Below are positions 1,019 through 47,940 of a stretch of DNA of 47,940 bases, piece by piece; within the stretch, counting starts at the first letter, position 1; the number at the start of each line of letters is the position of its first letter. Location of the stretch: NCBI GenBank assembly GCA_040182905.1, contig JARQWU010000050.1, forward strand, positions 1 through 47,940. The letters are read 5' to 3'. This stretch comes from Barthelona sp. PAP020. Lineage: Eukaryota. The translations under genes and the position numbers were made by a program. The notes beneath the pieces were generated by a model. The model did no database searches, was not told where the DNA came from, and was given only the letters and a program-made list of their open reading frames with translations.

Positions 1019-2509
1019 ATGATTGTTAACACTGCAGTTGAGGAAACTGACCCTTATTTTAAGTATAATATGGATCGAGTAGTTGTTCCAGATGGGTTCG
1101 ATGTGGATGGATTTGAAGATAATGGTCGACCAAAGAAGATTTATAATGCAGCGCTTGAAGGTAATCTTGATGTTGTCAAGCAGTGTATCAAAACTGGCGT
1201 TGATGTGAACAAACAGGGCAAGAAAGGAAGGACATCGCTTTGGGGAGCTGCTTTAAATGGGCATATTGAAGTTGTTGAGTTTTTGTTGGATTTTGGTGCT
1301 GATGTTAATTTGTGTATGAATGTGGGATATTCTCCATTATATGTTAGTTGTCAAAATGGTCATCTTGATGTTGCTAAAATTCTCTTGGATCATGGCGCTG
1401 ATGTTAATTTGTTTCCTAATGATGGTAGTTCTCCATTGTACGTCAGTTGTCAAAATGGTCATCTTGATGTTGCCAGAATGCTTTTGGATCATGACGCTCC
1501 TGTTAATTTGTGTAGGGACGGTGGATATTCTCCATTGTACATTAGTTGTCAAAATGGTTATCTTGATGTTGCCAAAATGCTCTTGGATTATGGAGCAGAT
1601 ATTAATTTGTGTATGAATGAAGGTGCTTCTCCATTGTACATCAGTTGTGAATTTGGTCATTTTGATGTTGCCAAAATGCTCTTGGATCATGGAGCTGATG
1701 TTAATTTGTGTGATAATAAAAGTTTTTCGCCATTGTACATCAGTTGTCAAAATGGTCATCTTAATGTTGCCAAAATACTCTTGGATCATGGAACTGATAT
1801 TAATTTGTGTAAGGATGGTGCTTCTCCATTGTACATAAGTTGTCAACTTGGTCATCTTGATGTTGCCAAAATGCTCTTAGATCATGGAGCTGATGGTAAT
1901 TTGTGTGATAATGATGGTATTTCTCCATTGTACATCAGTTGTCAAAATGGTCATCTTGATGTTGCCAAAATGCTCTTGGATTATGGGGCTGATGTTAATT
2001 TGTGTAGGCACGGTGGATATTCTCCATTGTATGTCAGTTGTTGGACAGGCCATCTTGATGTTGCCAAGATGCTTCTAGATTGTCCCGAAATAAACCTATA
2101 TCGTAAAGATATGCTGTTATTTTTCAACAGATTGTATACAAGTGATGAACAATGGAAAAAGAACAAATACAGTATTTTGAGCTGTCCCAATTTAAAACAT
2201 CAATTGGAGAGTGTCGAGCCTATTGATTTGAAATTTGAGCAATTTTCCAAATCCGAGTTAATTGAATTGGTGAAGAATGAGGGCTATCTTTTATCAACAC
2301 TTGTTGCAATGAAGGTAAACGGTGGCATCATCCGAGAATTTGTCAGTGCTGGAGTTTACATGAATCAAAGAGATTTTGACATGTCAATCAACTTATGTTG
2401 GGATTTGATTGACATCAATGAAAGGAATGGTGGTAATATGCGTCAGTATATTGATGAAGAGATGAAAGATGATGAGAGTGATGAGAGTGATGACAACGAT
2501 GATGATTAG
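1019..2509 (+). CDS. Ankyrin-repeat protein (about 10 repeats) with an unassigned conserved C-terminal module and acidic tail
   Basis: Repeated GxSPLYISCQNGHLDVAKMLLDHGADVNL ankyrin consensus. First ATG at 1019 (the ORF track starts at TTG 1010), stop TAG at 2507-2509. The C-terminal 61 aa align without gaps to the WD40 protein at 35691-36896. Confidence 0.92.
   Translation: MIVNTAVEETDPYFKYNMDRVVVPDGFDVDGFEDNGRPKKIYNAALEGNLDVVKQCIKTGVDVNKQGKKGRTSLWGAALNGHIEVVEFLLDFGADVNLCMNVGYSPLYVSCQNGHLDVAKILLDHGADVNLFPNDGSSPLYVSCQNGHLDVARMLLDHDAPVNLCRDGGYSPLYISCQNGYLDVAKMLLDYGADINLCMNEGASPLYISCEFGHFDVAKMLLDHGADVNLCDNKSFSPLYISCQNGHLNVAKILLDHGTDINLCKDGASPLYISCQLGHLDVAKMLLDHGADGNLCDNDGISPLYISCQNGHLDVAKMLLDYGADVNLCRHGGYSPLYVSCWTGHLDVAKMLLDCPEINLYRKDMLLFFNRLYTSDEQWKKNKYSILSCPNLKHQLESVEPIDLKFEQFSKSELIELVKNEGYLLSTLVAMKVNGGIIREFVSAGVYMNQRDFDMSINLCWDLIDINERNGGNMRQYIDEEMKDDESDESDDNDDD
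1325..2081 (+). repeat. Intragenic 99-bp tandem repeat array (8 near-identical ankyrin units)
   Basis: Nucleotide unit TCTCCATTGTACATCAGTTGTCAAAATGGTCATCTTGATGTTGCCAAAATGCTCTTGGATCATGGAGCTGATGTTAATTTGTGT repeats every 99 nt; one unit is 96 nt. Confidence 0.95.
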
Positions 2510-2879: not shown

Positions 2880-4060
2880 GAAAATTGCACCAAATTTTCC
2901 TACTTGATCGTCGAAGTTACATTCCTTTAATTGTCCGCTTTGGTTTTTGCTAAAATTTATTTAAGTGAGTTTTTTGGATCTATTTTTTTGTAATTATTTC
3001 CAAGCCAAGAAGAACTGTATGTATGAATGAACAAAAATGAATAGTGCTCATTTGTTTAATGGCTTTCAAGGCCCGATTGATCTGTTGAAAAACTTTAGAT
3101 TTTCTAAGGTAAAGTTCAAACTTTAAAATTTTGCTTTTGCAAAAATACAAAAAGATAGGAATGAAGAATTTCTCCGAAATTCTCCTACTTGATCGTTCAA
3201 ATTACATGTCAGTCCCTCAATTCCCCTCCTGGGATTTTGACTGAAATTTGCTAGAATGAGTTTTCTGAGTTTACTTTCTTTGTAAATAAATATAGTTGTT
3301 TCACAACTGGACCAATTTTCTTTTGTTTCTCTCTCTCTTGTAAATAGATATAGTTATTTCACAATTGGACCAAAAAATTTTTCATGAAAAGAAGGAGGAA
3401 GAGCTGAAAATTTTGATCCGATAAAAATAGTCCCCTTCTGAACAACTCTCATTTTATTTATTTTTATTTTTTATTTTTTTAAATTTTTATTTCTCTCTCA
3501 AGAAACCCATCAAGAATGAGTGAATTAGAAAAAATCATGTTTATTTGGTCAAAAACTTTCAAGGTTCAATGGATATGATAACAACTTGGAATTTCTTTAA
3601 AGTAAAAGAAACTTAAAAAGACAAAAAGGAGGAATCAATTTTCAAATATCATACTTAATCCACATTGAATTTCAGTCCCTCTATTTTCCTCCTTCGGGTT
3701 TCGGTTAAAATTTGCAATTAGTTTTTTGGGTTCTTCTCATTTGAATAATTGCAGTTATCTAGTCAGTGCACCAAAATTTCTACATTCCCATTTGATCATC
3801 AAAAATGAAGTTTGGTCACTCTTTTCCTTTGTAAAATGAGTGTTCTCAGTTATTTGTTTTCATGTGTACAAATTTGTTTCAAGGTTAGACCGATTTTCAA
3901 TATGTTTTTATCATTTCTTGTTATCTCCAAATCAACAGGAACAAAAAAATATCAATTGCGAATGAATTTACCTTTATTTACTTCAATTGAGGGTTGCACA
4001 CACCAACAACTCTAGAGACTTTCATTGTTTAGGAATTGAAAGTGATTCTTCAAAACATTA
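2880..4060. repeat. Degenerate tandem array of the same repeat family (best core copy 2996-3146)
   Basis: Sub-blocks recur in the same order: AAATT(T/C)TCCTACTTGATCG at about 2892 and 3177 (weaker near 3640), then the GAATGAGTTTTCT block at about 2963, 3254 and 3338, then the core at 2996 and, degenerate, near 3490. Confidence 0.8.
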
Positions 4061-4479: not shown

Positions 4480-4590
4480 AGAAATTAAATTTGAGTTCCC
4501 AATTCCCACTGTAAGTTTGACTGAAATATTCTTGAATGAGTTTTCTGTTTCATTCTCAGTAAATACATATGGTCGTTTCACAACTGGACT
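4480..4590. repeat. Partial copy of the repeat family
   Basis: TTTGACTGAAAT...GAATGAGTTTTCTG...GTAAATACATATGGTCGTTTCACAACTGGAC matches about 3237-3312. Confidence 0.7.
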
Positions 4591-5044
4591 ATGTTTTTAT
4601 TTTATTAGCCATTAACATAATGCAAAGCCAATCAAATACTCCTCTTTAACATTGAAAAGAATTCTTTTTAAAGTCCTTGTATTTTTGATTTTTATTAATG
4701 ATATTAAATAACCAGTAATGCTTTGTGAAAGAAGTATTTGTTTATTTTTTTTGTCTTTTGAAAGTAAATAACAAATAATACTTTATTTGATCGTTATCCA
4801 TGAGCACTTACATGTCTTAGTATTATCAAAGTGATTTGAATCTTGAATCAGCATTAAAAGGTATTGCAAAGATATTTTTTTTACCAAATAAAAAAAAAAG
4901 AATATTTGTGGAGTTTTTATTATAAACAAACCATATTAAGTAAATGTTTTGAGTGATGGATGTAAAAAAGAAGCACTTTGAAAATTTTAAAATTTTGAAC
5001 AATAAATAGAATTGGATGTAATATTGTTTGTTTTTCAATATGCA

Positions 5045-6920: not shown

Positions 6921-9900
6921 ATGATAAGAAAGATACTTCCGATAATATTAATTTTCATATGTATGTTAATAAGCAGCGTTTGTGGAAAAATTGTCTTTTG
7001 TAGTTATGAGGGTGGATATTTTCGTTTTTTTCCAAGGGTTGTGTGGAAAGATATAACATACATCGATTATAATACCCAAAATGAACTTCCTTTTCGTGGA
7101 TATAATAAAATTTTTGAAGATATGATTGTATCGCATTATAATTATTCAGAAAAAATTGAATTTAGATATAATATATTCAATAAAACAATTTTAACTGAAG
7201 AATGTGATGTGTATTTCAGTTATTCAGAAGAGAATAGAACAGATGAAAATTCGTTTACATTTTTTCAGGATTACATTGGATTTTTCTATAAATCATCATC
7301 ATTTCATGATTTATTAACAACAGAGGTTATATTAAAACCGTTAGCATTATTTGATGGGTTTTCAGATTTTGGTTTTGACTTAAAATATGTCAAACATCAA
7401 TTTCTTTATTCTTATTTGGATTCAATGATTCATCCTATTATAAAAGATACTTCAGCACTTGTTTTACCATTTTCAATGGGATTTTTGAATAGTTTTTTAC
7501 GTTTAAATACACACGATTTTATTTCAGATTATTATGACATTTCTATTGGGTATTCAATCGGTAAACCAATATTTTTAAACATCAATTGCAAAGACAAAGA
7601 TTTGATTGACATGTTGAAAGTTAATTCCTTCAAAATTCCGGAAATACCTATTTTTAGAAAGGAAGAAAAGGCTGTCTCTTCCTTTTCTTTGGTTGATATG
7701 AATCAAATTATCTTCATAATAATACCATTTTTATCATTGTTACCATTTATAACTTTCTTTTCCTCAAAGATGCCTTTATTATTGATTCCAGAGCCTATTT
7801 TTAATATTATTCGACAATTTCCTTTTTTAATTGCCAATAAACAAAGGAAAATTATTGGAATATCGGATAAACTGTTGAATTCAATCAAAGCTTCTGGAAC
7901 AAATTGTATTTTAACCAACGAAGATGTTTTTAGGCAAAAAAAAATTGAAGATTTATTTCCTTTCTTCAACAGAACAAGTTTCATTTCTAATGAAATGGAT
8001 ACTCTTAATAACACTGGAACTACTTGTGTTGATGAAAAAAGTATAAAAGCAATCACAATTCGGACCAAATTTTGTTGTTTTGATTCAGATTCAAGAAATC
8101 AAACTTATGAGGACAATGAAAAGAACTTGGAAAGTGATAGTAAAAGAGTTTATTCAATAATTAAGCATTCTGCTGGATTTGAATTGCCACCACATTATTA
8201 CATGTTTCAATCAATTTTTTTTAAGTCCATTGACAATGAAGAAGGATTTGATTTATGGGTATTTAAAGATGTTGATGAAGATTTTAAACGAGTTTTTTCG
8301 TTAATGGACACTCATAACGGATTTTTTGAGATAAAATTGGAAAAATTATTGAGCCTTTTGGAAAAGCTATCATTTTCTTGTTCAGATCTATTATGGAGAT
8401 ATCGTACAGAAGTTTTTGGTTTAGTAACACCTAGTAGAGTTGAAATGAGAAAAAAATTTGTTAAGTATGGAAAGAATGAGGATGATTTGTTGCATTTTTT
8501 AAATGATTTATTCCCTAAATTGCGTTGTGTGAATGATGAAAAGAATAATAATCATCTAACAGGTTCTACAACAATAAACGATCAAAATTCAAATCTAAAC
8601 CTGATCAATGACATGATTTTGGTAAATAGCAATACAACCACATCTACTTCCATATCTAATATTCTAACTGATCACAGTAATCTTGATGAAGGCCAATTAA
8701 ATAATGAATTGGACGATGGGTTTGAAACAATGCATGATAACAAGACTAAAAACCCAGATGAAATTGAAGAAACATTAAATCCCTTGATGAATGATGACAT
8801 TGATAACATGGTTCATAAGCTGGTTGACGATTTGTTTCATGTTGAAAAAAATTCAACAAAAAAAGAACAAATCAATCTTGACAATGAACAAAACAACAAT
8901 TATGAATCAAATATTTCAGCTTTAACAGAATTAAATACAAATATGACTGATTTGAAAGAGATACAATCATTAGAGACATTGGGAGGAGATGTATTTGTTA
9001 TTGACAGAGATTTACAGGATAAACGATTAAAAGATGCATATAACACTCTTAACAAAGATCTAAAATTGTATTTTTCAATATTTGAAAGATTTATCAATTT
9101 AACCCATTCAAAAATGAAATCTTGGAAAATATATCAGCAATTTTTAAGTTCTTCCTTATATATGACACGAACAATTGCGACATTTGATCTTTTATATTGT
9201 TTAATAAAGTTAATAAAAGAGTTGAGTGATAATAATGTTGAGTTTTTTATCAAGTTAAATTACAAAAGATTGACGTTGAACAAAAACCATTCTTATGGTT
9301 ATATAATTAATAAGATTCCTTCACAATATCGTTGGTATCCCATTGGGAACAGTAATGAAATCAATCTTTTTCAATATATGAAGTTACAATTAACTGTTTT
9401 AAAAACTTGGTATTTAGTTCAGTTTCAAAAGTATAAATATTATTATAAGAGTGAAAAGTTGGATATATACATAAAATTAGATATTTTGAATTATCGTAAG
9501 ATGGTTTACAGTGAAGAGTTTGATGAATTATCAAATGAGATTGTGTATGGAGATAGTATAATAGATGATGTGAAGATTCCAAGTGATAAATTGGTTGGGA
9601 TACAATATCATGGGTTTATCAATAGAGAACATATTAGTTATTTAAATTTAGAACAAGTTCGAAATTTATTATATAAGGATTTTTATTCTCGTTGGATTTT
9701 CAGCAACTTTTATCATTCCACGAGAAAGATTCGAGGAAAAGTATCGATTGTATCCTTACAAACAGACACAAAATGTCTCATTCCAGTAGCATATTTACCT
9801 CTTGCTAACCAAAAATATACAGTAAATGAATACATTTCAGAAGATAACCCTTCACTCCTTTCCTTTTCAAGTGCTAACATTAAACAAATAAAACAAGTGG

Positions 9901-23093: not shown

Positions 23094-23969
23094 TCAAATG
23101 AGAGACAACAAAAAGACCACAATTTCATCATATCCTTCACTTTTGGCGATATTTAAGGCTTTATCTGAGATTTCTATCTTTTGATGACTGTATTGAACTA
23201 ACAACTTTATAATTTCAAAGTTTCCGAAATAACAAGATATTTCAAGAGGTTTACGTTCTCCTAAATTGACATTTACACCATATGTTAACAAAGCCTTCAC
23301 AATTGGCGCATTTTCATTTTCACAGGCAAGATATAACAGACTATTTCCATTAGAATCCATAATATCAAATGATTCAATGAAATTTTGAAAAACTTTCAGC
23401 ATTTCCATGTTGTTTTGCCGAACAACTTCACATAAAATGTGATCACCATTCATTAACGGAATGTTTGGATCTGCCCCTAAATTTAACAAAGCTAAGGCTG
23501 TTTTATTGAAGTTTTTAATGACAGAACCATGCAAAGGAGTTAATCCATCACTGAAATCCTTAATAGAACGTTTCGCATTAATATTAGCGCCATTCATGAT
23601 CAAATATTTAACTACCTCTGTATGACCTTTTTTACTGGCAATAAATAATGAAGTAGACTCATTATTATCCAAAATATCAATTTCGTCATTATTATATAAG
23701 GGTAATAACAATTTTAGGATCTCTATATGTCCTCTACAACAACAAGAATGAAGGGGCAACCTACCCCATCTTCCAGCTCTGACGTAAATATTCGGATTAA
23801 ATTTTAAACATTCTTTGATCAATTCAATATCACCGTTTTTAGCACCTATGTGAAGCTTTGTGTATCCTTTTTCGTCTATATCATTAACATTATCTTCAGA
23901 AATGTTCATTTTGAAATATTTGGGAATTTGGTTTCTTGAAAAACTTCTTTTCATTTTTATTTTTGTCAT
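23094..23969 (-). CDS. Ankyrin-repeat protein (about 7 divergent repeats); start codon uncertain
   Basis: GYTKLHIGAKNGDIELIK, GRLPLHSCCCRGHIEILKLLL, STSLFIASKKGHTEVVKYLIMNGANIN, GNSLLYLACENENAPIVKALLTYGVNVN. Lacks the C-terminal module of 1019-2509. Confidence 0.9.
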   Translation of the reverse strand: MTKIKMKRSFSRNQIPKYFKMNISEDNVNDIDEKGYTKLHIGAKNGDIELIKECLKFNPNIYVRAGRWGRLPLHSCCCRGHIEILKLLLPLYNNDEIDILDNNESTSLFIASKKGHTEVVKYLIMNGANINAKRSIKDFSDGLTPLHGSVIKNFNKTALALLNLGADPNIPLMNGDHILCEVVRQNNMEMLKVFQNFIESFDIMDSNGNSLLYLACENENAPIVKALLTYGVNVNLGERKPLEISCYFGNFEIIKLLVQYSHQKIEISDKALNIAKSEGYDEIVVFLLSLI

Positions 23970-23979
23970 TTAATTCAAT

Positions 23980-24704
23980 ATGATTGCAATTATTGGATTA
24001 GTCTTTTTAGCAGTGTTTGTTTTCTTATGGTATATGGGAGTATTTAGAAAAATTGAGATCAATGAATCATATGATTTTCCTGGTGGCTTAATTGCTTTTA
24101 AACCGTATGGATTTTTCTTTTGAATATTTTTAAACTAACTTTTTAAAGATTTGTTGGTCATCCTTCAACGATTTCAAAAACGATGGATGTTTTGTATGAA
24201 GAATTGATTGCAGTGAATTTGCCTGTACGATATGGTTTGGGAATTTATTTCACTAATCCTGCTGTCACACCAAAAGAAGAAAATTATGGAATTGCCGCAT
24301 GCACTTTTGATGAGACTTCAACAAATTTATCAGAAACTCTTTTGGAAAAAGGTTTTACCATCACAAGACTATCTCCTATTGAATCTTACAAATGCGATTT
24401 TCCTTTAAAAAACAAACTGAGTTTTATGTTTGCGGTTTTGAAAATATATGGAAAATTGGCCAAATTTATGAGTGCTAAGGAAAATGTTGAGATAGAGAGT
24501 TTGAATGAAAGACCTTCTTTTGAGTTATATACTGATAAGTTAATTTCTATTATGTTCCCTCATGATTCCCATACTTTTGATGATCTCAAAGAAATTGCTT
24601 TGAATTTTAAAGATAATTATTTTTCTGAAGATGCTGCATCTGATGATGATGATGATGATGATGTAGAAGAAGCGGAAGAAGAAGTTTCTGATCTTGATAA
24701 CTAG
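23980..24704 (+). CDS. TEX264: TEX264-like protein (N-terminal TM, GyrI-like domain); exons 23980-24104 and 24149-24704
   Basis: Exon 1 MIAIIGLVFLAVFVFLWYMGVFRKIEI...GLIAFK is missing from the ORF track and splices in frame to ORF 24183. GIYFTNPAVTP, GFTITRLSP, DFPLKNKLSFMFAVLKIY and PSFELY parallel TEX264 motifs (AVYYDNP..VP, GFK, FPY..LSI, PRLEIY). Confidence 0.82.
24105..24148 (+). other. Spliceosomal intron, 44 nt
   Basis: GTATGG...AAACTAAC TTTTTAAAG. Removal joins CC|A (Pro) and restores the frame into ORF 24183-24704. Confidence 0.88.
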
Positions 24705-24953: not shown

Positions 24954-27900
24954 TTAATAAATGTTTGATAGCTCAGAAATATAATTAACCAATGACTTTC
25001 TATTGTATCCCAATGCAACACTAATGATTTCTTGTAATGTACTGTCCAATAACAAGAAGCTTTCAATAACACCTCCATCGATACAATTAATTCGTTCTAT
25101 TTCCATGTTAGAGTCCAAATTTACATAACTTCTTGCTTGCTCAATATCTACTTCACCAGGAAGAGGTTTCAATTCAAGGATCTTCTTTTCCAATTTTTCT
25201 AACAATGAGTATAACTGGGGTGATAATGATTTATAACAAAAGAAAGCTCCGGACTGTCCTGTCATAATGAATTGAGGCATAAAGGAAAAATCCTTCGTGA
25301 TTTGGATATCTGTTTGAAATTCTTGAGACAATCCCCCCTTTAATAACACATTTATAGAATCACCAGTGTAAAAACATGTTAAAAAATGAAGGTATGAATC
25401 AGCTTTTTGTTCTTTTAAAAATGCTAGATTTCCACCACCACATACAAAACAGGAATCTTTGGACACAGCTAGAATTGCTGTTGAAAATTGAGGATTTCTT
25501 CCTTTTAAACTCGGTGTCAACTCTCCACTTTCCAAAAAATCTAGAGCAGTAACACCACCCAACAGATCACTAATAAACAAACGATTATCAATCAAAGAAT
25601 AATCTTGTGGTTGTCTCACAGTACTTGTGGTTTCAATGACACTTAACCGAGGATATTCAGGAGTTCCCTTTAAAATGAATTGATCCGCATGGCCTGATGT
25701 CAATACAATAATTCGGTTTTCATGTGTTAAAAGTTGTGCAGGTACTTCTTTCAAAGTCTTACTTAATAATAAATTGAAACTACTGTCACCAATCCAATAA
25801 ATATGTAAGCTACCCGAATTGTCATTAAGCAAACCACAACCAACAATTAAAATATCAAAGCCAAAAGCTTTTGATTTGGTTAAACACATAGGGACATGGT
25901 TCGAGGGTAAATTAACTTCAAATTGCTGAAGCAAAGTTGCTGAATCAATCAACCTTAATGTACCACCAATTATATGTCCTTTGTTAAAATGAACAAAACC
26001 AATTATGGTCTGAAAATCTCCATTGACTGTTTTATAAGTACAAATAGGATTTGGAGTTGCATCAAAATGATTTGCATGAAAATTAACCTTCTTACTTAAT
26101 CTAATACGGGTAATATTCAAATGGTTTTGTTCAATTGTTGAAAGATAATCATTAAATGGGGTAAAAAACCCATCATAACAACTCGGTAATGATAACTGAA
26201 ACATTGTTTTTCCACTGATATTGATAAGATACGAATCAATCCCTAGCACAATCACATAGTTCTTCTTATACATAAGAATCTCAAAAATATGTGATACATT
26301 TGTAAATTCACGACTAATTTTCATATTTTCATATAAAGTTATTGTGTTATCAGAATTATAAGTGATAAACATGGAATCATCTATGGTTTTCATCAATAAA
26401 CAGATACGATCCTTCCTACAATCTAAATCTTCCATTGCTTTAACCATCGTATCATCACCATACATCTCAATTTCATAAATATCATGAATAAAATCAGCGA
26501 AAATCAACCGATCATCAATAATCGTTAAAGATGAAATGGAAGAACCAAATTCAATTGTCTTATCAATTGTATCTCCTTGTCCATACAGAATTGTGCCTGC
26601 TACAGTATACATACACCACACATTCTTGTGGAATACACCACCGACAACGTACATTTCATCACAACTATCTTTAAAATTTTCAACACTACCAAGATCCACC
26701 ACATATCCTTCATCCAACATATACAACCCACGTGTGGTTATCATCAGCCCATCTTTATGAGCTGTATGAATTATTTCCTCAGGGAGTTCCAAATTATCAA
26801 TGTATGTAATTGTTGGTGTCGATGTGGATGGATTTTCCTGATTTTGAGACAATTTAACCAGTTGATTCCCTTCAATACCAGAAAATATCACACCAATAAA
26901 ATCATTAACAGCAACTCCAGTGTTCTTTAACGTTGTTTGCATCGTATCTTCTGCACCTGTTTCCATATTTTTGACAAGTTTTTTCTTCTCAATACTTTTT
27001 AGATCAACAAGATGACTTTTCATTGCTTTATTCTTTAGTTCAATTTCATCCACCAAATCTACCGTTGGTCCAGTTCTAATTGATCGTAAACTTCCATTGA
27101 AAGTGTTACAAGCAGCTAAAATACTTCCATTAGGCAGTCTTTGCAAACCAGTAACAGGGCCAAAATTTTCAAATGTCATTAACTCTTCAACTTTGCTGCC
27201 AATTTTTAATAACTTAGAATCGTTAAACTTGGAAGCTAAAAACAACAAGGAAGGAGTAAGCATCGTCAAATCACTTCCCACAATACCTTCATAACATACA
27301 TCATATGTTATTCTGGTAGAACTGACGTTGAGATGCAACACCTCACCAGTTTGATTGACTCCAAAAAATGTTGCCTCATCTCGTATTGTACGACTAGGTA
27401 CTCTTTGAACAAGGCTATGAATAAATGAAGGAGCTGGTGAACTTAAAATACAATGTCCTGAAGAGATAACAAACGAATGAGTGTCTGAACAACAAAGCAC
27501 AGTTTCCTCATCTTTTCCTATCAACGTCATGGATAAATTTCGATTTATTATATTATCAAGTCTAATAATTGTTGGTTCCCAAAGACCGTATTTCAGAAAG
27601 GTGACAGTTTTGTTACTAAACATGTACAAACAAGATGAAGTGGCTAGCATTGCCATTACTTGACTATGACGAGGAATTCTTCGGGCAACTTCCAGCAATT
27701 TATGTTGATTTGTCAATGTGATATAAAATATAACATGTTGATATACATAAATGAACAAATGCTTACCAGTAGGATCAAGTGTTATTAATGGTTTATCCAC
27801 TAAAGGATAACCAACATACCTATCATGTCCTGATTTTGCACGGGTTGTTATAGAATAATCATTTTCAAATTCCAAAATAAAATAATTGTGTCTTTCAGTC

Positions 27901-28181
27901 ATCACAAATAATAGATCTTTTTTGGGTGTTGCAATTACCTCAGCAATTAAAAATCCTCCAATAATTGGAATTGAAGCAACCGGAATCAAAGTCTCATTGG
28001 TTGAAGAAGAAATTGTTTGTGTTTGTGATTGCTGTTGTTGTAACCGATAAATATCAATATGAGTGTGGCGACATAATAATAAATTCGTAATTTGTTTGTT
28101 ACATAAGTTTGCGGTGAAAGAATTAATAATAGCTGTTGATTTTACAACAGTAGATACATAACCATATCGAATTTGAGACAT
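24954..28181 (-). CDS. DDB1: DNA damage-binding protein 1 (CUL4 adaptor), divergent
   Basis: YGYVSTVVKSTAI...NLLLCRHTHIDIY, KDLLFVMTERHNYFILEF, LLFLASKFNDSKLL, FENFGPV, GSLRSIRTG, FYTGDSIN, CIDGGVIESFL. First ATG at 28181. Confidence 0.88.
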   Translation of the reverse strand: MSQIRYGYVSTVVKSTAIINSFTANLCNKQITNLLLCRHTHIDIYRLQQQQSQTQTISSSTNETLIPVASIPIIGGFLIAEVIATPKKDLLFVMTERHNYFILEFENDYSITTRAKSGHDRYVGYPLVDKPLITLDPTGKHLFIYVYQHVIFYITLTNQHKLLEVARRIPRHSQVMAMLATSSCLYMFSNKTVTFLKYGLWEPTIIRLDNIINRNLSMTLIGKDEETVLCCSDTHSFVISSGHCILSSPAPSFIHSLVQRVPSRTIRDEATFFGVNQTGEVLHLNVSSTRITYDVCYEGIVGSDLTMLTPSLLFLASKFNDSKLLKIGSKVEELMTFENFGPVTGLQRLPNGSILAACNTFNGSLRSIRTGPTVDLVDEIELKNKAMKSHLVDLKSIEKKKLVKNMETGAEDTMQTTLKNTGVAVNDFIGVIFSGIEGNQLVKLSQNQENPSTSTPTITYIDNLELPEEIIHTAHKDGLMITTRGLYMLDEGYVVDLGSVENFKDSCDEMYVVGGVFHKNVWCMYTVAGTILYGQGDTIDKTIEFGSSISSLTIIDDRLIFADFIHDIYEIEMYGDDTMVKAMEDLDCRKDRICLLMKTIDDSMFITYNSDNTITLYENMKISREFTNVSHIFEILMYKKNYVIVLGIDSYLINISGKTMFQLSLPSCYDGFFTPFNDYLSTIEQNHLNITRIRLSKKVNFHANHFDATPNPICTYKTVNGDFQTIIGFVHFNKGHIIGGTLRLIDSATLLQQFEVNLPSNHVPMCLTKSKAFGFDILIVGCGLLNDNSGSLHIYWIGDSSFNLLLSKTLKEVPAQLLTHENRIIVLTSGHADQFILKGTPEYPRLSVIETTSTVRQPQDYSLIDNRLFISDLLGGVTALDFLESGELTPSLKGRNPQFSTAILAVSKDSCFVCGGGNLAFLKEQKADSYLHFLTCFYTGDSINVLLKGGLSQEFQTDIQITKDFSFMPQFIMTGQSGAFFCYKSLSPQLYSLLEKLEKKILELKPLPGEVDIEQARSYVNLDSNMEIERINCIDGGVIESFLLLDSTLQEIISVALGYNRKSLVNYISELSNIY

Positions 28182-35690: not shown

Positions 35691-36896
35691 TTAGTCATCA
35701 TCATCGCTTATATCATCACAATGTTCATTCATAAACTCATGCATGTTACCACCATTATTTTTGTTGAAGTCAACCAAATCCCAACAAGTATCAAGAATCA
35801 TATTGTATTCCTCTTCATTCACATAAATTCCTGCAGCAACCAATTCTCTAATCTTTTGAGTACTCATATTCATAGCAATAAGATTCGAAACTACATTACC
35901 ATCACCTTTTGATAATTCAATGAGTGCCAATTTTTGTGAATGATAATAATCAGATTCGATTGAATATATCTTGATAGTTCTATCTTCACACGATCCACAT
36001 GTCAACTGTTTACCATCAGGTGATATAGCAAAAGAAAAAAATCTGCGTTCACAACCACAATGAAGCATTTGAATCTCCTGATAGCTGTCTATATTGTATG
36101 CAGTAATATATCCATCACCAGCCATTATAAACAAGATGTTGGGTGTTAAAAAATGAAGAGCCCATACTTCACCACCAAGATTAAATGAGTGAAGAAGAGA
36201 TCCATTATCAAAGTTCCAGAGTTTGACTTTATTTGATTGATCACTCGCACAAATAATCCTTTTGGTTAGATTAAAGTCAATAGCATTAACCTCTGCATGA
36301 TGTTTAAATGTGCGAATGACGGAAAAATTGTCAGGGTCAACTAATTTGGCGCTTTTATCTTCACTGCCAGTAAAAAGATATTTCCCATCTGATGAAAGTT
36401 TTATAGCCCAAATACACCTAGAATGAATTCTCTCTTTCAATACAACAGCACAGCTATCTATATCCCACTTTTTAAGAGCGCCATAACCATCACCAGAAAA
36501 AATATAATTAGAACAACAGGAAAAACAAATTCCAAACAGATTGGCATCAGTGCTCATTCTCCCCAAAATAGATAAATCTGGAAAACTGTAGACAATAATA
36601 GTCTTGTCAAGGGAACATGTTGCCATTCTTTGTCCATTGGGTGAAAATACAACACCAAAAATACTGTATTCATGATCTTTCAAACTTCGATATAATCTTC
36701 CAGTTTCCACATTGATTACATGTGTATTTCCATTATCACTACCAATTACTAGCCACTTACCATCTGCAGAGTATTCACAATCATGCATGGGACCCAAAAC
36801 ATTTCCAATTATTTTCATACTACTTTTGTTAATTTTGTGATAGAGCATTCCATTAATATTTTTTTCCATCAAATCAACATTTGATTCGGCAGACAT
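35691..36896 (-). CDS. WD40-repeat beta-propeller protein with the same C-terminal module as the ankyrin protein 1019-2509
   Basis: About 7 WD-like repeats (YSADGKWLVIGS, HEYSIFGVVFSPNGQRMATCSLDKTI, LKKWD, LSSDGKYLFTGSEDK, VKLWN, ISPDGKQLTCGS). Probable ATG at 36896; an upstream in-frame ATG at 36959 is also possible. Confidence 0.92.
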   Translation of the reverse strand: MSAESNVDLMEKNINGMLYHKINKSSMKIIGNVLGPMHDCEYSADGKWLVIGSDNGNTHVINVETGRLYRSLKDHEYSIFGVVFSPNGQRMATCSLDKTIIVYSFPDLSILGRMSTDANLFGICFSCCSNYIFSGDGYGALKKWDIDSCAVVLKERIHSRCIWAIKLSSDGKYLFTGSEDKSAKLVDPDNFSVIRTFKHHAEVNAIDFNLTKRIICASDQSNKVKLWNFDNGSLLHSFNLGGEVWALHFLTPNILFIMAGDGYITAYNIDSYQEIQMLHCGCERRFFSFAISPDGKQLTCGSCEDRTIKIYSIESDYYHSQKLALIELSKGDGNVVSNLIAMNMSTQKIRELVAAGIYVNEEEYNMILDTCWDLVDFNKNNGGNMHEFMNEHCDDISDDDD

Positions 36897-37719
36897 GACG
36901 ATTAAAACAAAAGATGAAAAAAAAAAAGTACTGCCAGTTTTTTCTTCCGTCTTCGCCATTTTGGAAATGCAAATTCGATAAAGCACTTCAATAAAGGATT
37001 CTTTGAGATTTTTCGATAATGTAATAACGTTAAACTAGAATTTATTGAGTTCACGATTCAATTATCCACATATTCATTACTATTCATTAAAATATAAAAA
37101 AAAAATTTGTGTTTCTAATAAAATAATATGTTTTATATCGTTTATAATTTGCAAAACTCCATCGACATCAAGCAAAAAATTCAAATATTATAATCTGGAG
37201 GTTTGTGCTCTGTTTTAGAGATTGTATAGTGGCAAATTAATGTTGTTATTTCCAAAGACAATGTCTTCACGTCAAATACTACTGATACTTAATGATTAAA
37301 GAAAGTAATTTGCTGAAATTTTGTTCGCTGTTACTTCAATAAATGTTATTTGTGGCAATTAAATACCCGAGGAATAGACATTTTGACAAGCAATGTAATT
37401 TGCAAGTAAATAAAAATCAATATTTATTTTTAATTCATCATCTTAAGAATTAGTTTGAGAAAGGTTTGAAAGACATTTGGAACAAAGAGAAGACAATTTT
37501 TGAAAAATGGAATAAAGGGTAAAATATACATGAACTGGAAGGAACTCAGCAAGATTCTCTCAACCCAATCATCAACTGAAGCTCAAATAATTCTACATAT
37601 TAGGTAAAAGGTGGTTTCGTATTGTCAGTGAAGCTATTTTGGGTGCAAATCTTTTCTTTCAATGTGAAAATCCAAAAAAAAAAAATTGTTTGAAAAATAT
37701 TCATTTACTTACAGTACAA

Positions 37720-46348: not shown

Positions 46349-47152
46349 ATGTCAAGCAATTTGGATCTTAAACAGAAGTTTAGTCTTTTAAGACAAGAGT
46401 ATGTCAAATTAAAGGGAGAATATGACGAATTATTTGAAACATATGAACAACTTCAAAAAGAAAATCAAGAATTACACAAATCTTTTGATTGTTTTAAAAT
46501 AAATTCCTCAAGTGATGAACAGAAAAAGGATATTATCAATAAAAAATTGGAAATGAAACAAGAAGAAATCAACAGATTGGTTGAAGAATTGAATGGAATT
46601 CGTATCGTTTATGAAAGTAAAACCAAAGAAAAAGTTGATTCATTGAGAGAATTTTATGATAATACAATAAAAGAACGACAAAAAAAAAGTGAAAATGATT
46701 TTGAAACACAAAAAAATAATTTAAGCGAAAAAATTCTTAATTTGGAAGAAAAGTTGTTTTTGTTACAGAATGCAGAAAAAGAAGCAGCAAAACGGACTGT
46801 TAATATTCCTTCCATTGATTTAGCAGAAGGTTTTTTGATTAAGGAAGGGTCAGTAAGAAAATCTTTGAAGAGACGTTTCTTCAGATTAGCAATTGATCGG
46901 GAAGAAAAGAGAGTCATTTTTAATTATTTTGCTGAGCCTGAAAATTCATCTCCAATTGGTTCTATTGATTTAGCTACCAGCACATTTGTTTATCAAGTTC
47001 CTGATGAAAAGCATCAACGTAAATATACTTTTGAAATTGATGTCGATACTGCTGATCCTGATTCTCGTATTTACGTATTATCTGCTGCATCATATGCAGA
47101 TTTGCAATATTGGCTTGTTATGTTGGACTTTGCTCTTGAAACTATTTCATGA
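46349..47152 (+). CDS. Coiled-coil protein with C-terminal PH domain (paralog B)
   Basis: Aligns without gaps to 11295-12101; 188/267 aa identical by manual count. Confidence 0.9.
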   Translation: MSSNLDLKQKFSLLRQEYVKLKGEYDELFETYEQLQKENQELHKSFDCFKINSSSDEQKKDIINKKLEMKQEEINRLVEELNGIRIVYESKTKEKVDSLREFYDNTIKERQKKSENDFETQKNNLSEKILNLEEKLFLLQNAEKEAAKRTVNIPSIDLAEGFLIKEGSVRKSLKRRFFRLAIDREEKRVIFNYFAEPENSSPIGSIDLATSTFVYQVPDEKHQRKYTFEIDVDTADPDSRIYVLSAASYADLQYWLVMLDFALETIS

Positions 47153-47424: not shown

Positions 47425-47787
47425 CCGATATTTTTAAAAATTTATCCTAATTTTGCAAGTTTTCATGCATTCACCGTGGCAGGTCAAAAATTTGGGGGTA
47501 AATTAAGGAAAAGTTTTGTACTTTGAGGAAAGAGGAAGAATCGGAAAATTTCGATTCGACACAAATTATGGGCTTGTGAACAACCCTTAACAGATTTCAA
47601 GCACAAGACTATCAAAACTTACATGAATCTGTTACAATTAAGATATTTTCTTGAATTCATTTTTCAATTGAAAATTGCTTTGTTTCTTTAAAACCTGAAC
47701 GAAATTAATCTTTTAAAATGGTAAAGACAATTCAAATGAAAAAATGTGAAATCAATTGTTAAGCTGAACACACATACAATACAAATA

Positions 47788-47940
47788 ATTTCCAAGCCAA
47801 GAAGCACTGTGCGAATGAGTGAATAAAAAAGAATAGTGTCTATTTGGTTAAAGGCTTTCGAGGCCCGATTGATCTGTTGAAAAACTTTAGATTTTCTAAG
47901 GTAAAGTTTAAACTTTAAAATTTTGCTTTTGCAAAAATAT
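47788..47940. repeat. Dispersed repeat family core, running off the window end
   Basis: Near-identical to 111-260 and 2996-3146, same orientation. Confidence 0.9.

Follow-up and report, generated by a model that had tools for sequence, protein, structure and literature searches.

The window analyzed here, 47,940 bp of contig JARQWU010000050.1 from the anaerobic flagellate Barthelona sp. PAP020, is AT-rich (26–34% GC; the published value for PAP020 is 30.5%, PMC11316075) and gene-dense, with long, uninterrupted ORFs of the eukaryotic type. Two of its genes, one encoding ankyrin repeats and the other WD40 repeats, share a C-terminal module, and their features are as follows:

1019–2509, + strand: ankyrin-repeat gene with the C-terminal module, an intact, intron-free ORF of 496 a.a (alternative start, the ATG at 1070)
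1130–2098, + strand: ~10 ankyrin repeats (10 stretches matched by Pfam Ank)
2255–2332, + strand: N-terminal half of the module in the ankyrin protein, a helix (ELIELVK) followed by helix 2, with Val instead of Ser/Cys/Ala at the BC-box-like position
2333–2449, + strand: invariant module core of the ankyrin protein, R-x5-G-x15-WDL-x3-N-x2-NGGN-M-x2-[FY], 39 a.a
2450–2506, + strand: acidic tail of the ankyrin protein, final residues DDD
35691–36896, − strand: WD40 gene with the C-terminal module, intact and intron-free, 401 a.a from the ATG at 36896 (ORF open from 36959)
35946–36836, − strand: seven-bladed WD40 propeller (AF2 model, pLDDT about 90+)
35850–35927, − strand: N-terminal half of the module in the WD40 protein, a helix (ALIELSK-GDG; L-x3-S-x3-G, a partial BC box) followed by helix 2
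35733–35849, − strand: invariant module core of the WD40 protein, with predicted helices IRELVAAG and EEEYNMILDTC, then WDL, the NGGN loop, and MHEF
35694–35732, − strand: acidic tail of the WD40 protein, final residues DDDD

The ankyrin region includes eight near-identical units of 33 a.a, which differ mainly at hairpin-tip and helix-1 surface positions and coincide with a family of 99-nt DNA repeats (D1; 1130–2098). Dividing the repeats by ankyrin surface and framework position numbering, pN/pS was 0.42/0.48 at the surface and 0.12/0.30 in the framework; the surface ratio, 0.87, does not exceed 1 and corresponds to either relaxed or diversifying change. A dispersed repeat of ~160 bp (84–92% identity; 104–270, 2992–3155, and 47781–47939, with a weaker copy at 3514–3619) flanks the ankyrin gene in direct copies separated by 2885 bp, where it could have aided gene duplication, and more short repeats are found nearby (20–110, 3229–3375, and 4509–4594). 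A second ankyrin gene in the window (23094–23969, −) lacks the module, so the tail is not general to ankyrin proteins here. For the WD40 gene, the ATG at 36896 is the probable start, giving a 401 a.a product that agrees with its paralogues. All structural matches of the full WD40 model are propellers, among them LIS1 (Z 39.5 over residues 21–314).

The first-pass annotation had paired the two tails in an ungapped alignment of 2258–2440 (+) with 35742–35924 (−), in which 30 of 61 residues are identical, and we confirmed both the coordinates and the strands. The Smith–Waterman score of the two tails is 217, compared to 39.3 ± 5.9 (maximum 61) in 300 shuffles, and the whole proteins match by BLASTP with an E of 4e-23. 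Identities at the three codon positions of the segments (37, 48, and 29 of 61, second positions being the best kept), together with a pN of 0.31 below a pS of 0.66 over 65 codons, indicate constraint on the protein, and the likeness appears to be old and maintained at the protein level. Significant DNA similarity between the two genes covers 63 coding bases only, with none significant in the flanks. The N-terminal parts are, as had been proposed, unrelated (Pfam recognizes ankyrin repeats in ORF 1019–2509 and WD40 repeats in ORF 35691–36959), both proteins do have Asp-rich ends, and the last 99 residues of either protein match no Pfam family (best E 0.25). Scanned with the profile in six frames and with the motif in DNA, the window yields exactly two module copies; the module itself is ~4 residues longer than first stated, reaching the F/Y after NGGNM.

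Beyond the window, this pair belongs to a family of 54 distinct module cores (52 clusters at 90%, the two window copies included). The first region searches gave 2 ankyrin clusters and 13 WD40 clusters; a profile run against 1.84 billion representatives yielded 45 matches, 42 with the module and three weak ankyrin/EF-hand repeat proteins, and a third search added one further module protein. Of the 67 proteins collected, 60 exceed 30 bits, and the complete core pattern is found in 59. Left out were P0053, P0055, and P0056 (weak matches driven by repeats), four proteins that do not belong to the family (P0060, P0061, P0063, and P0064), and the fragment P0058, whose core is incomplete. The module is always single and C-terminal, as a shared C-terminal box should be according to the annotation: the core ends 7–30 residues from the C-terminus in 59/59 proteins, none of which has two copies, and has an R-to-N length of 35 residues in 58/59.

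All 21 module proteins checked for source are Barthelona sp. PAP020 transcripts (EukProt), and eight more are labelled EukProt/Trinity. The relatives are thus transcribed, and the two window genes are known here from DNA. Exact copies of the two window proteins are absent from the searched collection, the best relatives being P0006 for the WD40 protein (its nearest paralogue, 56% identity) and P0001–P0004 for the ankyrin protein (about 50% over the shared part). Two isoforms of one Trinity gene, P0011 and P0012, share 71 identical C-terminal residues at 57.5% identity overall, which would reflect either chimerism in the assembly or a tail exchanged recently. As far as the sampling of the searched collections goes, the module is likely to be specific to barthelonids. 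No relatives were found in the viral contigs, metagenome contigs, or prokaryote genomes searched, and two ESM Atlas searches gave no usable match to the module. The sole metagenome motif match (L001) was rejected, having no fitting reading frame and missing the rest of the module. The barthelonid literature searched, subscription papers and one scanned supplement aside, holds no earlier description of the module; the main text of the genome paper (PMC11316075) does not mention ankyrin, WD40, ubiquitin, or cullin, and its text supplements are likewise bare of the five terms searched.

The module occurs on at least three unrelated repeat folds, namely WD40, ankyrin, and ARM, in keeping with the different scaffolds predicted from the window pair. 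The commonest scaffold is a single WD40 propeller of ~400 a.a, and there are also longer propeller proteins whose N-terminal part is helical. Three members of 877–961 a.a, with weak or absent Pfam support, are by eye probably two propellers; an alternative view of long members as propellers inserted in degenerate ankyrin solenoids was unsupported, as the ankyrin profile scored P0042 alone of 16 proteins. Ankyrin scaffolds are seen in the window protein, in P0001–P0004, and in P0042 (998 a.a), whose N-terminus appears kinase-like by eye with altered catalytic motifs and no Pfam match at E ≤ 1, a layout paralleling Giardia NEK-ankyrin proteins. P0030 carries importin-alpha-like ARM repeats (E 5.5e-8), and the short protein P0057 carries the module without any assigned domain.

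Both the ankyrin and the WD40 fusions are present in the genomic DNA of the window. No core on a non-WD40 scaffold is more than 74% identical to the core of another gene (the maximum is 64% for P0030 and P0042), so these cores are not copies of a neighbor's transcript, which speaks against chimeric transcripts. In a tree of the 54 modules, mostly poorly supported (4 of 51 branches starred), the four ankyrin rows form one group (98/96) and P0042 is joined to a WD40 member (98/80); P0030 is placed within the WD40 members, on branches that carry no star. This placement hints that the module may have been transferred between scaffolds more than once.

The module spans ~65 residues, with an N-terminal half variable in length and sequence and a core of fixed length. 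Within the core, conservation reaches 100% for R and G, 91% for W (F in the other 9%), 98% for D, and 100% for L and N, and continues through the NGGN end (N 91%, G 94%, G 100%, N 100%, M 81%, F 79%). Prolines are almost absent from it (4 of 2106 residues). An acidic end follows the core in 48/54 members, compared to 2/18 other ORFs of the window, and the terminal DDD occurs in 26/54. AF2 modeling on the WD40 alignment places helices at 319–330, 335–341, 346–355, and 361–375 after the propeller (pLDDT ~80, falling to ~50–65 in the NGGN part), and a model of the module alone gives the same helices (pLDDT 70, pTM 0.48). The tail is a small, predicted helical domain common to ~50 barthelonid repeat proteins.

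Pairs of the 31 single-propeller paralogues are on average 57% identical in the core and 35% in both the propeller and the module N-half, and the core exceeds the propeller in 465/465 pairs; recruitment of members via the module inflates its apparent conservation, and neither pairs nor shuffles are independent of descent. Variability in the same 31 proteins concentrates on the propeller's top face, where 21 positions, taken from model strand ends after the entropy table had been seen, show 3.09 bits and 30% aromatic residues. The bottom loops show 2.45 bits and 6% (p = 1.5e-4 against the top face), and the outer (d) strands 2.17 bits and 4% (p = 1.9e-5).

The annotation had been unable to place the module in a named domain, and our searches agree: neither the window tails nor sets of 15 and 33 members reached the cut-off of any Pfam family. 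With the module as the query, PDB sequences gave no match in one search and a best E of 0.11 in another. The module-only model found best values of E 1.6 in the PDB (Foldseek), E 0.62 in BFVD, Z 5.4 in VIA (48,161 chains; UNC-45, rmsd 2.8, 80 aligned, with generic helical repeats below), and Z 3.3 in a second VIA look; at pLDDT 70, these fold searches neither exclude a known family nor show a new fold.

The BC box is defined as [TSP]-L-x3-[CSA]-x3-[AILMFVPG], with Gly allowed last (PMC6232478). Its reported absence from the module stands for the strict pattern, seen in 2/53 members (shuffle mean 1.4) and out of register in one of the two, but not for its half, since L-x3-[CSA] is present in the first helix in 40/53. 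This helix reads L-I-E-L-S-K-x-x-G, with Val at +4 in the ankyrin members, and freeing the first residue of the BC pattern raises the matches in helix 1 to 26/53 (shuffle mean 7.2, maximum 16). The Cul5 box, LPxP (PMC3355856), occurs in 0/54 members. The F-box pattern LPxE, also reported missing, is indeed found in 0/54; a looser form (phi-P-x2-phi-x3-phi) occurs in 6/54 in any register, and the 15 and 33 members scanned gave no Pfam F-box or PRANC match at E ≤ 10. With the strict BC box, LPxP, and LPxE all failing, the invariant core is unlike any known cullin-ligase box. DCAFs are marked by a WDxR motif or an N-terminal H-box, and a scan of the module region for [WYF]DxR matched 2/54. The zinc-ligand Cys/His pattern of RING domains and the U-box were not found, and neither has a Pfam match among the 15 and 33 members.

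Two further likenesses came from profile comparison by hhalign, with ankyrin and EF-hand templates drawn partly from the profile search's own weak matches. The last 39 module columns align ungapped to EF-hands (P 2.3e-4, probability 44%, a P value biased by the template being itself a match of the search), and the comparison with the EF-hand protein P0053 shows agreement at the helix-E hydrophobic positions (−8, −5, −4, −1), D1 (43/54), N3 (54/54), N9 (54/54), and F13. The reference spacing is that of calcineurin-B/NCS-type EF-hands, and a canonical loop has 12 residues, with Ca2+ ligands at 1, 3, 5, 9, and 12 and a hydrophobic residue at 8. The module fails at positions 5 (variable), 8 (always Gly), and 12 (Glu/Asp in 16/54), matches the canonical pattern in 0/54, and forms a single motif with a short exit helix, so that canonical Ca2+ binding seems unlikely. 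The middle of the module shows ankyrin helix-2/GxxxN spacing over 23 columns (P 2.3e-4, probability 44%, with the same reservation on templates), and Ankyrin-1 matches it at an E of 0.71; a full 33-residue unit with TPLH, in tandem, was not found, the module being a single unit without a Pfam Ank match. Judged on these motifs and profiles, the ankyrin, EF-hand, and BC-box likenesses appear faint and none amounts to membership. As the motifs of the SOCS box, F-box, RING, and EF-hand do not fit, we treat the module as a putative undescribed domain, and the proteins that bear it as a family resembling SOCS-box receptors in layout.

The first-pass annotation interpreted the module as a lineage-specific docking box shuffled onto different binding scaffolds and linking many targets to one machine, such as a ubiquitin ligase. 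The modular part of this interpretation is borne out by the many single C-terminal copies, the three or more folds, the want of a named domain, and the pairing of a constant tail with variable binding faces, a combination that fits any receptor system. We consider it likely that the module is a docking box through which variable receptors bind one conserved partner: a structural cap would neither suit three folds nor hold R, D, N, and NGGN unchanged. The WD40, ankyrin, or ARM part would pick the target, and the tail would dock each protein onto the common partner by its invariant surface (Arg, Trp-Asp-Leu, Asn, Asn-Gly-Gly-Asn).

Granted one conserved partner, we would on balance expect it to belong to a cullin-type ligase. 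Helix 1 may then be a variant BC box or the relic of one, and the core would make a new contact with an adaptor or cullin. Duplication of genes in the WD40 family, along with a transfer now and then to another scaffold, would account for the spread of the module. A docking box that feeds a ubiquitin ligase, in which we infer the ligase step from the architecture, has overall about an even chance of being right. Against the ligase step, the BC-like helix lies in the less conserved half, whose 35% identity equals that of the propeller, and it cannot be recognized in several distant members. In favor of this step, the window encodes a divergent DDB1 homologue (24954–28181, −; 1075 a.a; 39/39 PDB matches at E ≤ 1e-5 are DDB1), and PAP020 therefore has at least one cullin adaptor. 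A cullin survey predicts further complex types in excavates (PMC2785787). Also against the ligase step, the same survey argues for an origin of elongin ligases in animals and fungi alone (PMC2785787), and Giardia is described as lacking Skp1 and Cullin1 (PMC7029713).

Several known receptor systems share parts of this layout. The ASB and WSB receptors of Elongin BC-Cul5 ligases combine a variable repeat domain, either ankyrin or WD40, with one short, constant, helical C-terminal box (PMC3355856). In contrast to the SOCS box, the module is ~65 a.a long, peaks in conservation in the WDL...NGGN segment, which SOCS boxes lack, ends in an acidic tail, and shows a strict BC box in 2/53 members, no LPxP, and no Pfam SOCS_box match. 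SOCS boxes are ~40 a.a in length. The poxvirus ANK/F-box (PRANC) and ANK/BC proteins likewise represent a lineage-specific ankyrin expansion with a C-terminal ligase-docking tail, and in ANK/BC proteins a cryptic BC box can work without a Pro-containing cullin box (PMC6232478). Unlike these, the module resides on cellular genes, mostly with WD40 repeats, lacks LPxE (0/54), and has a nearly proline-free core. In Giardia, a member of the sister lineage Fornicata, 30 ankyrin proteins carry a C-terminal RING, and these XB3-like ankyrin-RING ligases thus also form an expanded ankyrin set with a constant C-terminal domain (PMC7029713); the module differs in lacking a zinc-ligand pattern and in occurring on WD40 and ARM scaffolds too. 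A more ambitious version of the docking-box reading, which we offer tentatively, is a receptor class made by barthelonids around a new box that binds an adaptor or cullin (or another machine) in a way unlike F-box, SOCS, BTB, or DCAF proteins. The box would possibly be half BC box, ankyrin helix, and dead EF-hand, and would serve at least 50 quickly changing receptors of the WD40, ankyrin, and armadillo types in the streamlined genome of a free-living organism.

Other roles for a constant tail deserve consideration. The tail may instead dock onto a non-ubiquitin machine (a trafficking coat, chaperone, Atg8, or unfoldase), perhaps as an EF-hand-derived, dockerin-like element with or without calcium, a role we regard as fairly unlikely. 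The ungapped 39-column EF-hand alignment and its fit at D1, N3, N9, and F13 speak for such an origin, but its P value is biased by the template and the canonical pattern is met in 0/54. Similarly, W/F-D-L-[LIV] could act as an Atg8-binding core in 44/54 members, although this amounts to four letters at a predicted helix end. The terminal DDD of 26/54 members recalls the C-terminal acid motifs bound by TPR clamps.

It is also unlikely that the module is a homotypic interaction domain (death- or SAM-like), by which variable-faced sensors would oligomerize or signal, for example in defense against prey bacteria or viruses. Fungal HET-E/NLR systems include variable WD40 receptors, and the large lineage-specific expansion, the hypervariable faces, the kinase-like N-terminus of P0042 (by eye), and P0057, which bears the module without a recognizable binding domain as a downstream adaptor might, would all suit such a system. 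Yet no member has two copies, Pfam scans of the module-bearing proteins revealed no NTPase or effector domain, and near-invariance over diverged paralogues would fit one conserved partner better than many self-pairings. A predicted complex of two module copies scored 0.00 in a run without an alignment and with an uncertain fold, and so speaks neither for nor against self-pairing.

Quite improbable, in our view, is a module that itself binds E2 or ubiquitin, yielding a single-chain ligase or shuttle in which it replaces the RING of the Giardia ankyrin proteins, whose slot it occupies (PMC7029713). One member per scan touches Pfam UBA_BIRC2-3 (E 0.066 in 1/15 and 0.041 in 1/33), but this is the level of unrelated chance families. 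UBA domains are three-helix bundles marked by an MG[FY] loop, which occurs in 0/54 modules, and the helix-Gly-helix-WDL spacing recalls the UBA-like domains of DCN1 and p47. With a single conserved Cys (46/54), the module is no RING. Finally, a structural cap or passenger, in the form of a degenerate ankyrin unit plus cap carried along with duplicated 3′ ends and lacking a common partner, is very unlikely: the ankyrin spacing of the module middle, the Ankyrin-1 value, two weak ankyrin matches, the concentration of copies in one expanded WD40 family, and the ~160-bp repeat on both sides of the ankyrin gene favor it, but the invariant residues are polar or glycine (R, D, N, N, G, G, N), conservation in the core exceeds that in the scaffolds, a single cap cannot finish three unrelated folds, and the window genes share only the 63 coding bases, with no significant similarity in their flanks.

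Known cullin-ligase receptors use only a handful of docking boxes. If the module is a docking box, its 39-residue invariant core, present on ~50 receptors, offers a ready bait for naming the machine that it would serve. The ~50 module genes, a lower bound, correspond to near 0.8% of the 6305 predicted PAP020 proteins (PMC11316075, Table 1), a large investment for a small genome.

Other features of the window include two paralogous coiled-coil and PH genes with 73% DNA identity (11295–12101, +, and 46349–47152, +) and a kinesin with a C-terminal motor (12333–14480, +), the first 85 residues of which appear ubiquitin-like by eye, without Pfam support. Two ORFs, 6921–10397 (+, 1158 a.a) and 24183–24704 (+, 173 a.a), match no Pfam family at E ≤ 1. 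A 3.6-kb region without long ORFs (14480–18130) holds tRNA-Arg(ACG) (15820–15895, −) and tRNA-Gly(GCC) (16439–16509, +), along with several short repeats, some of them inverted.
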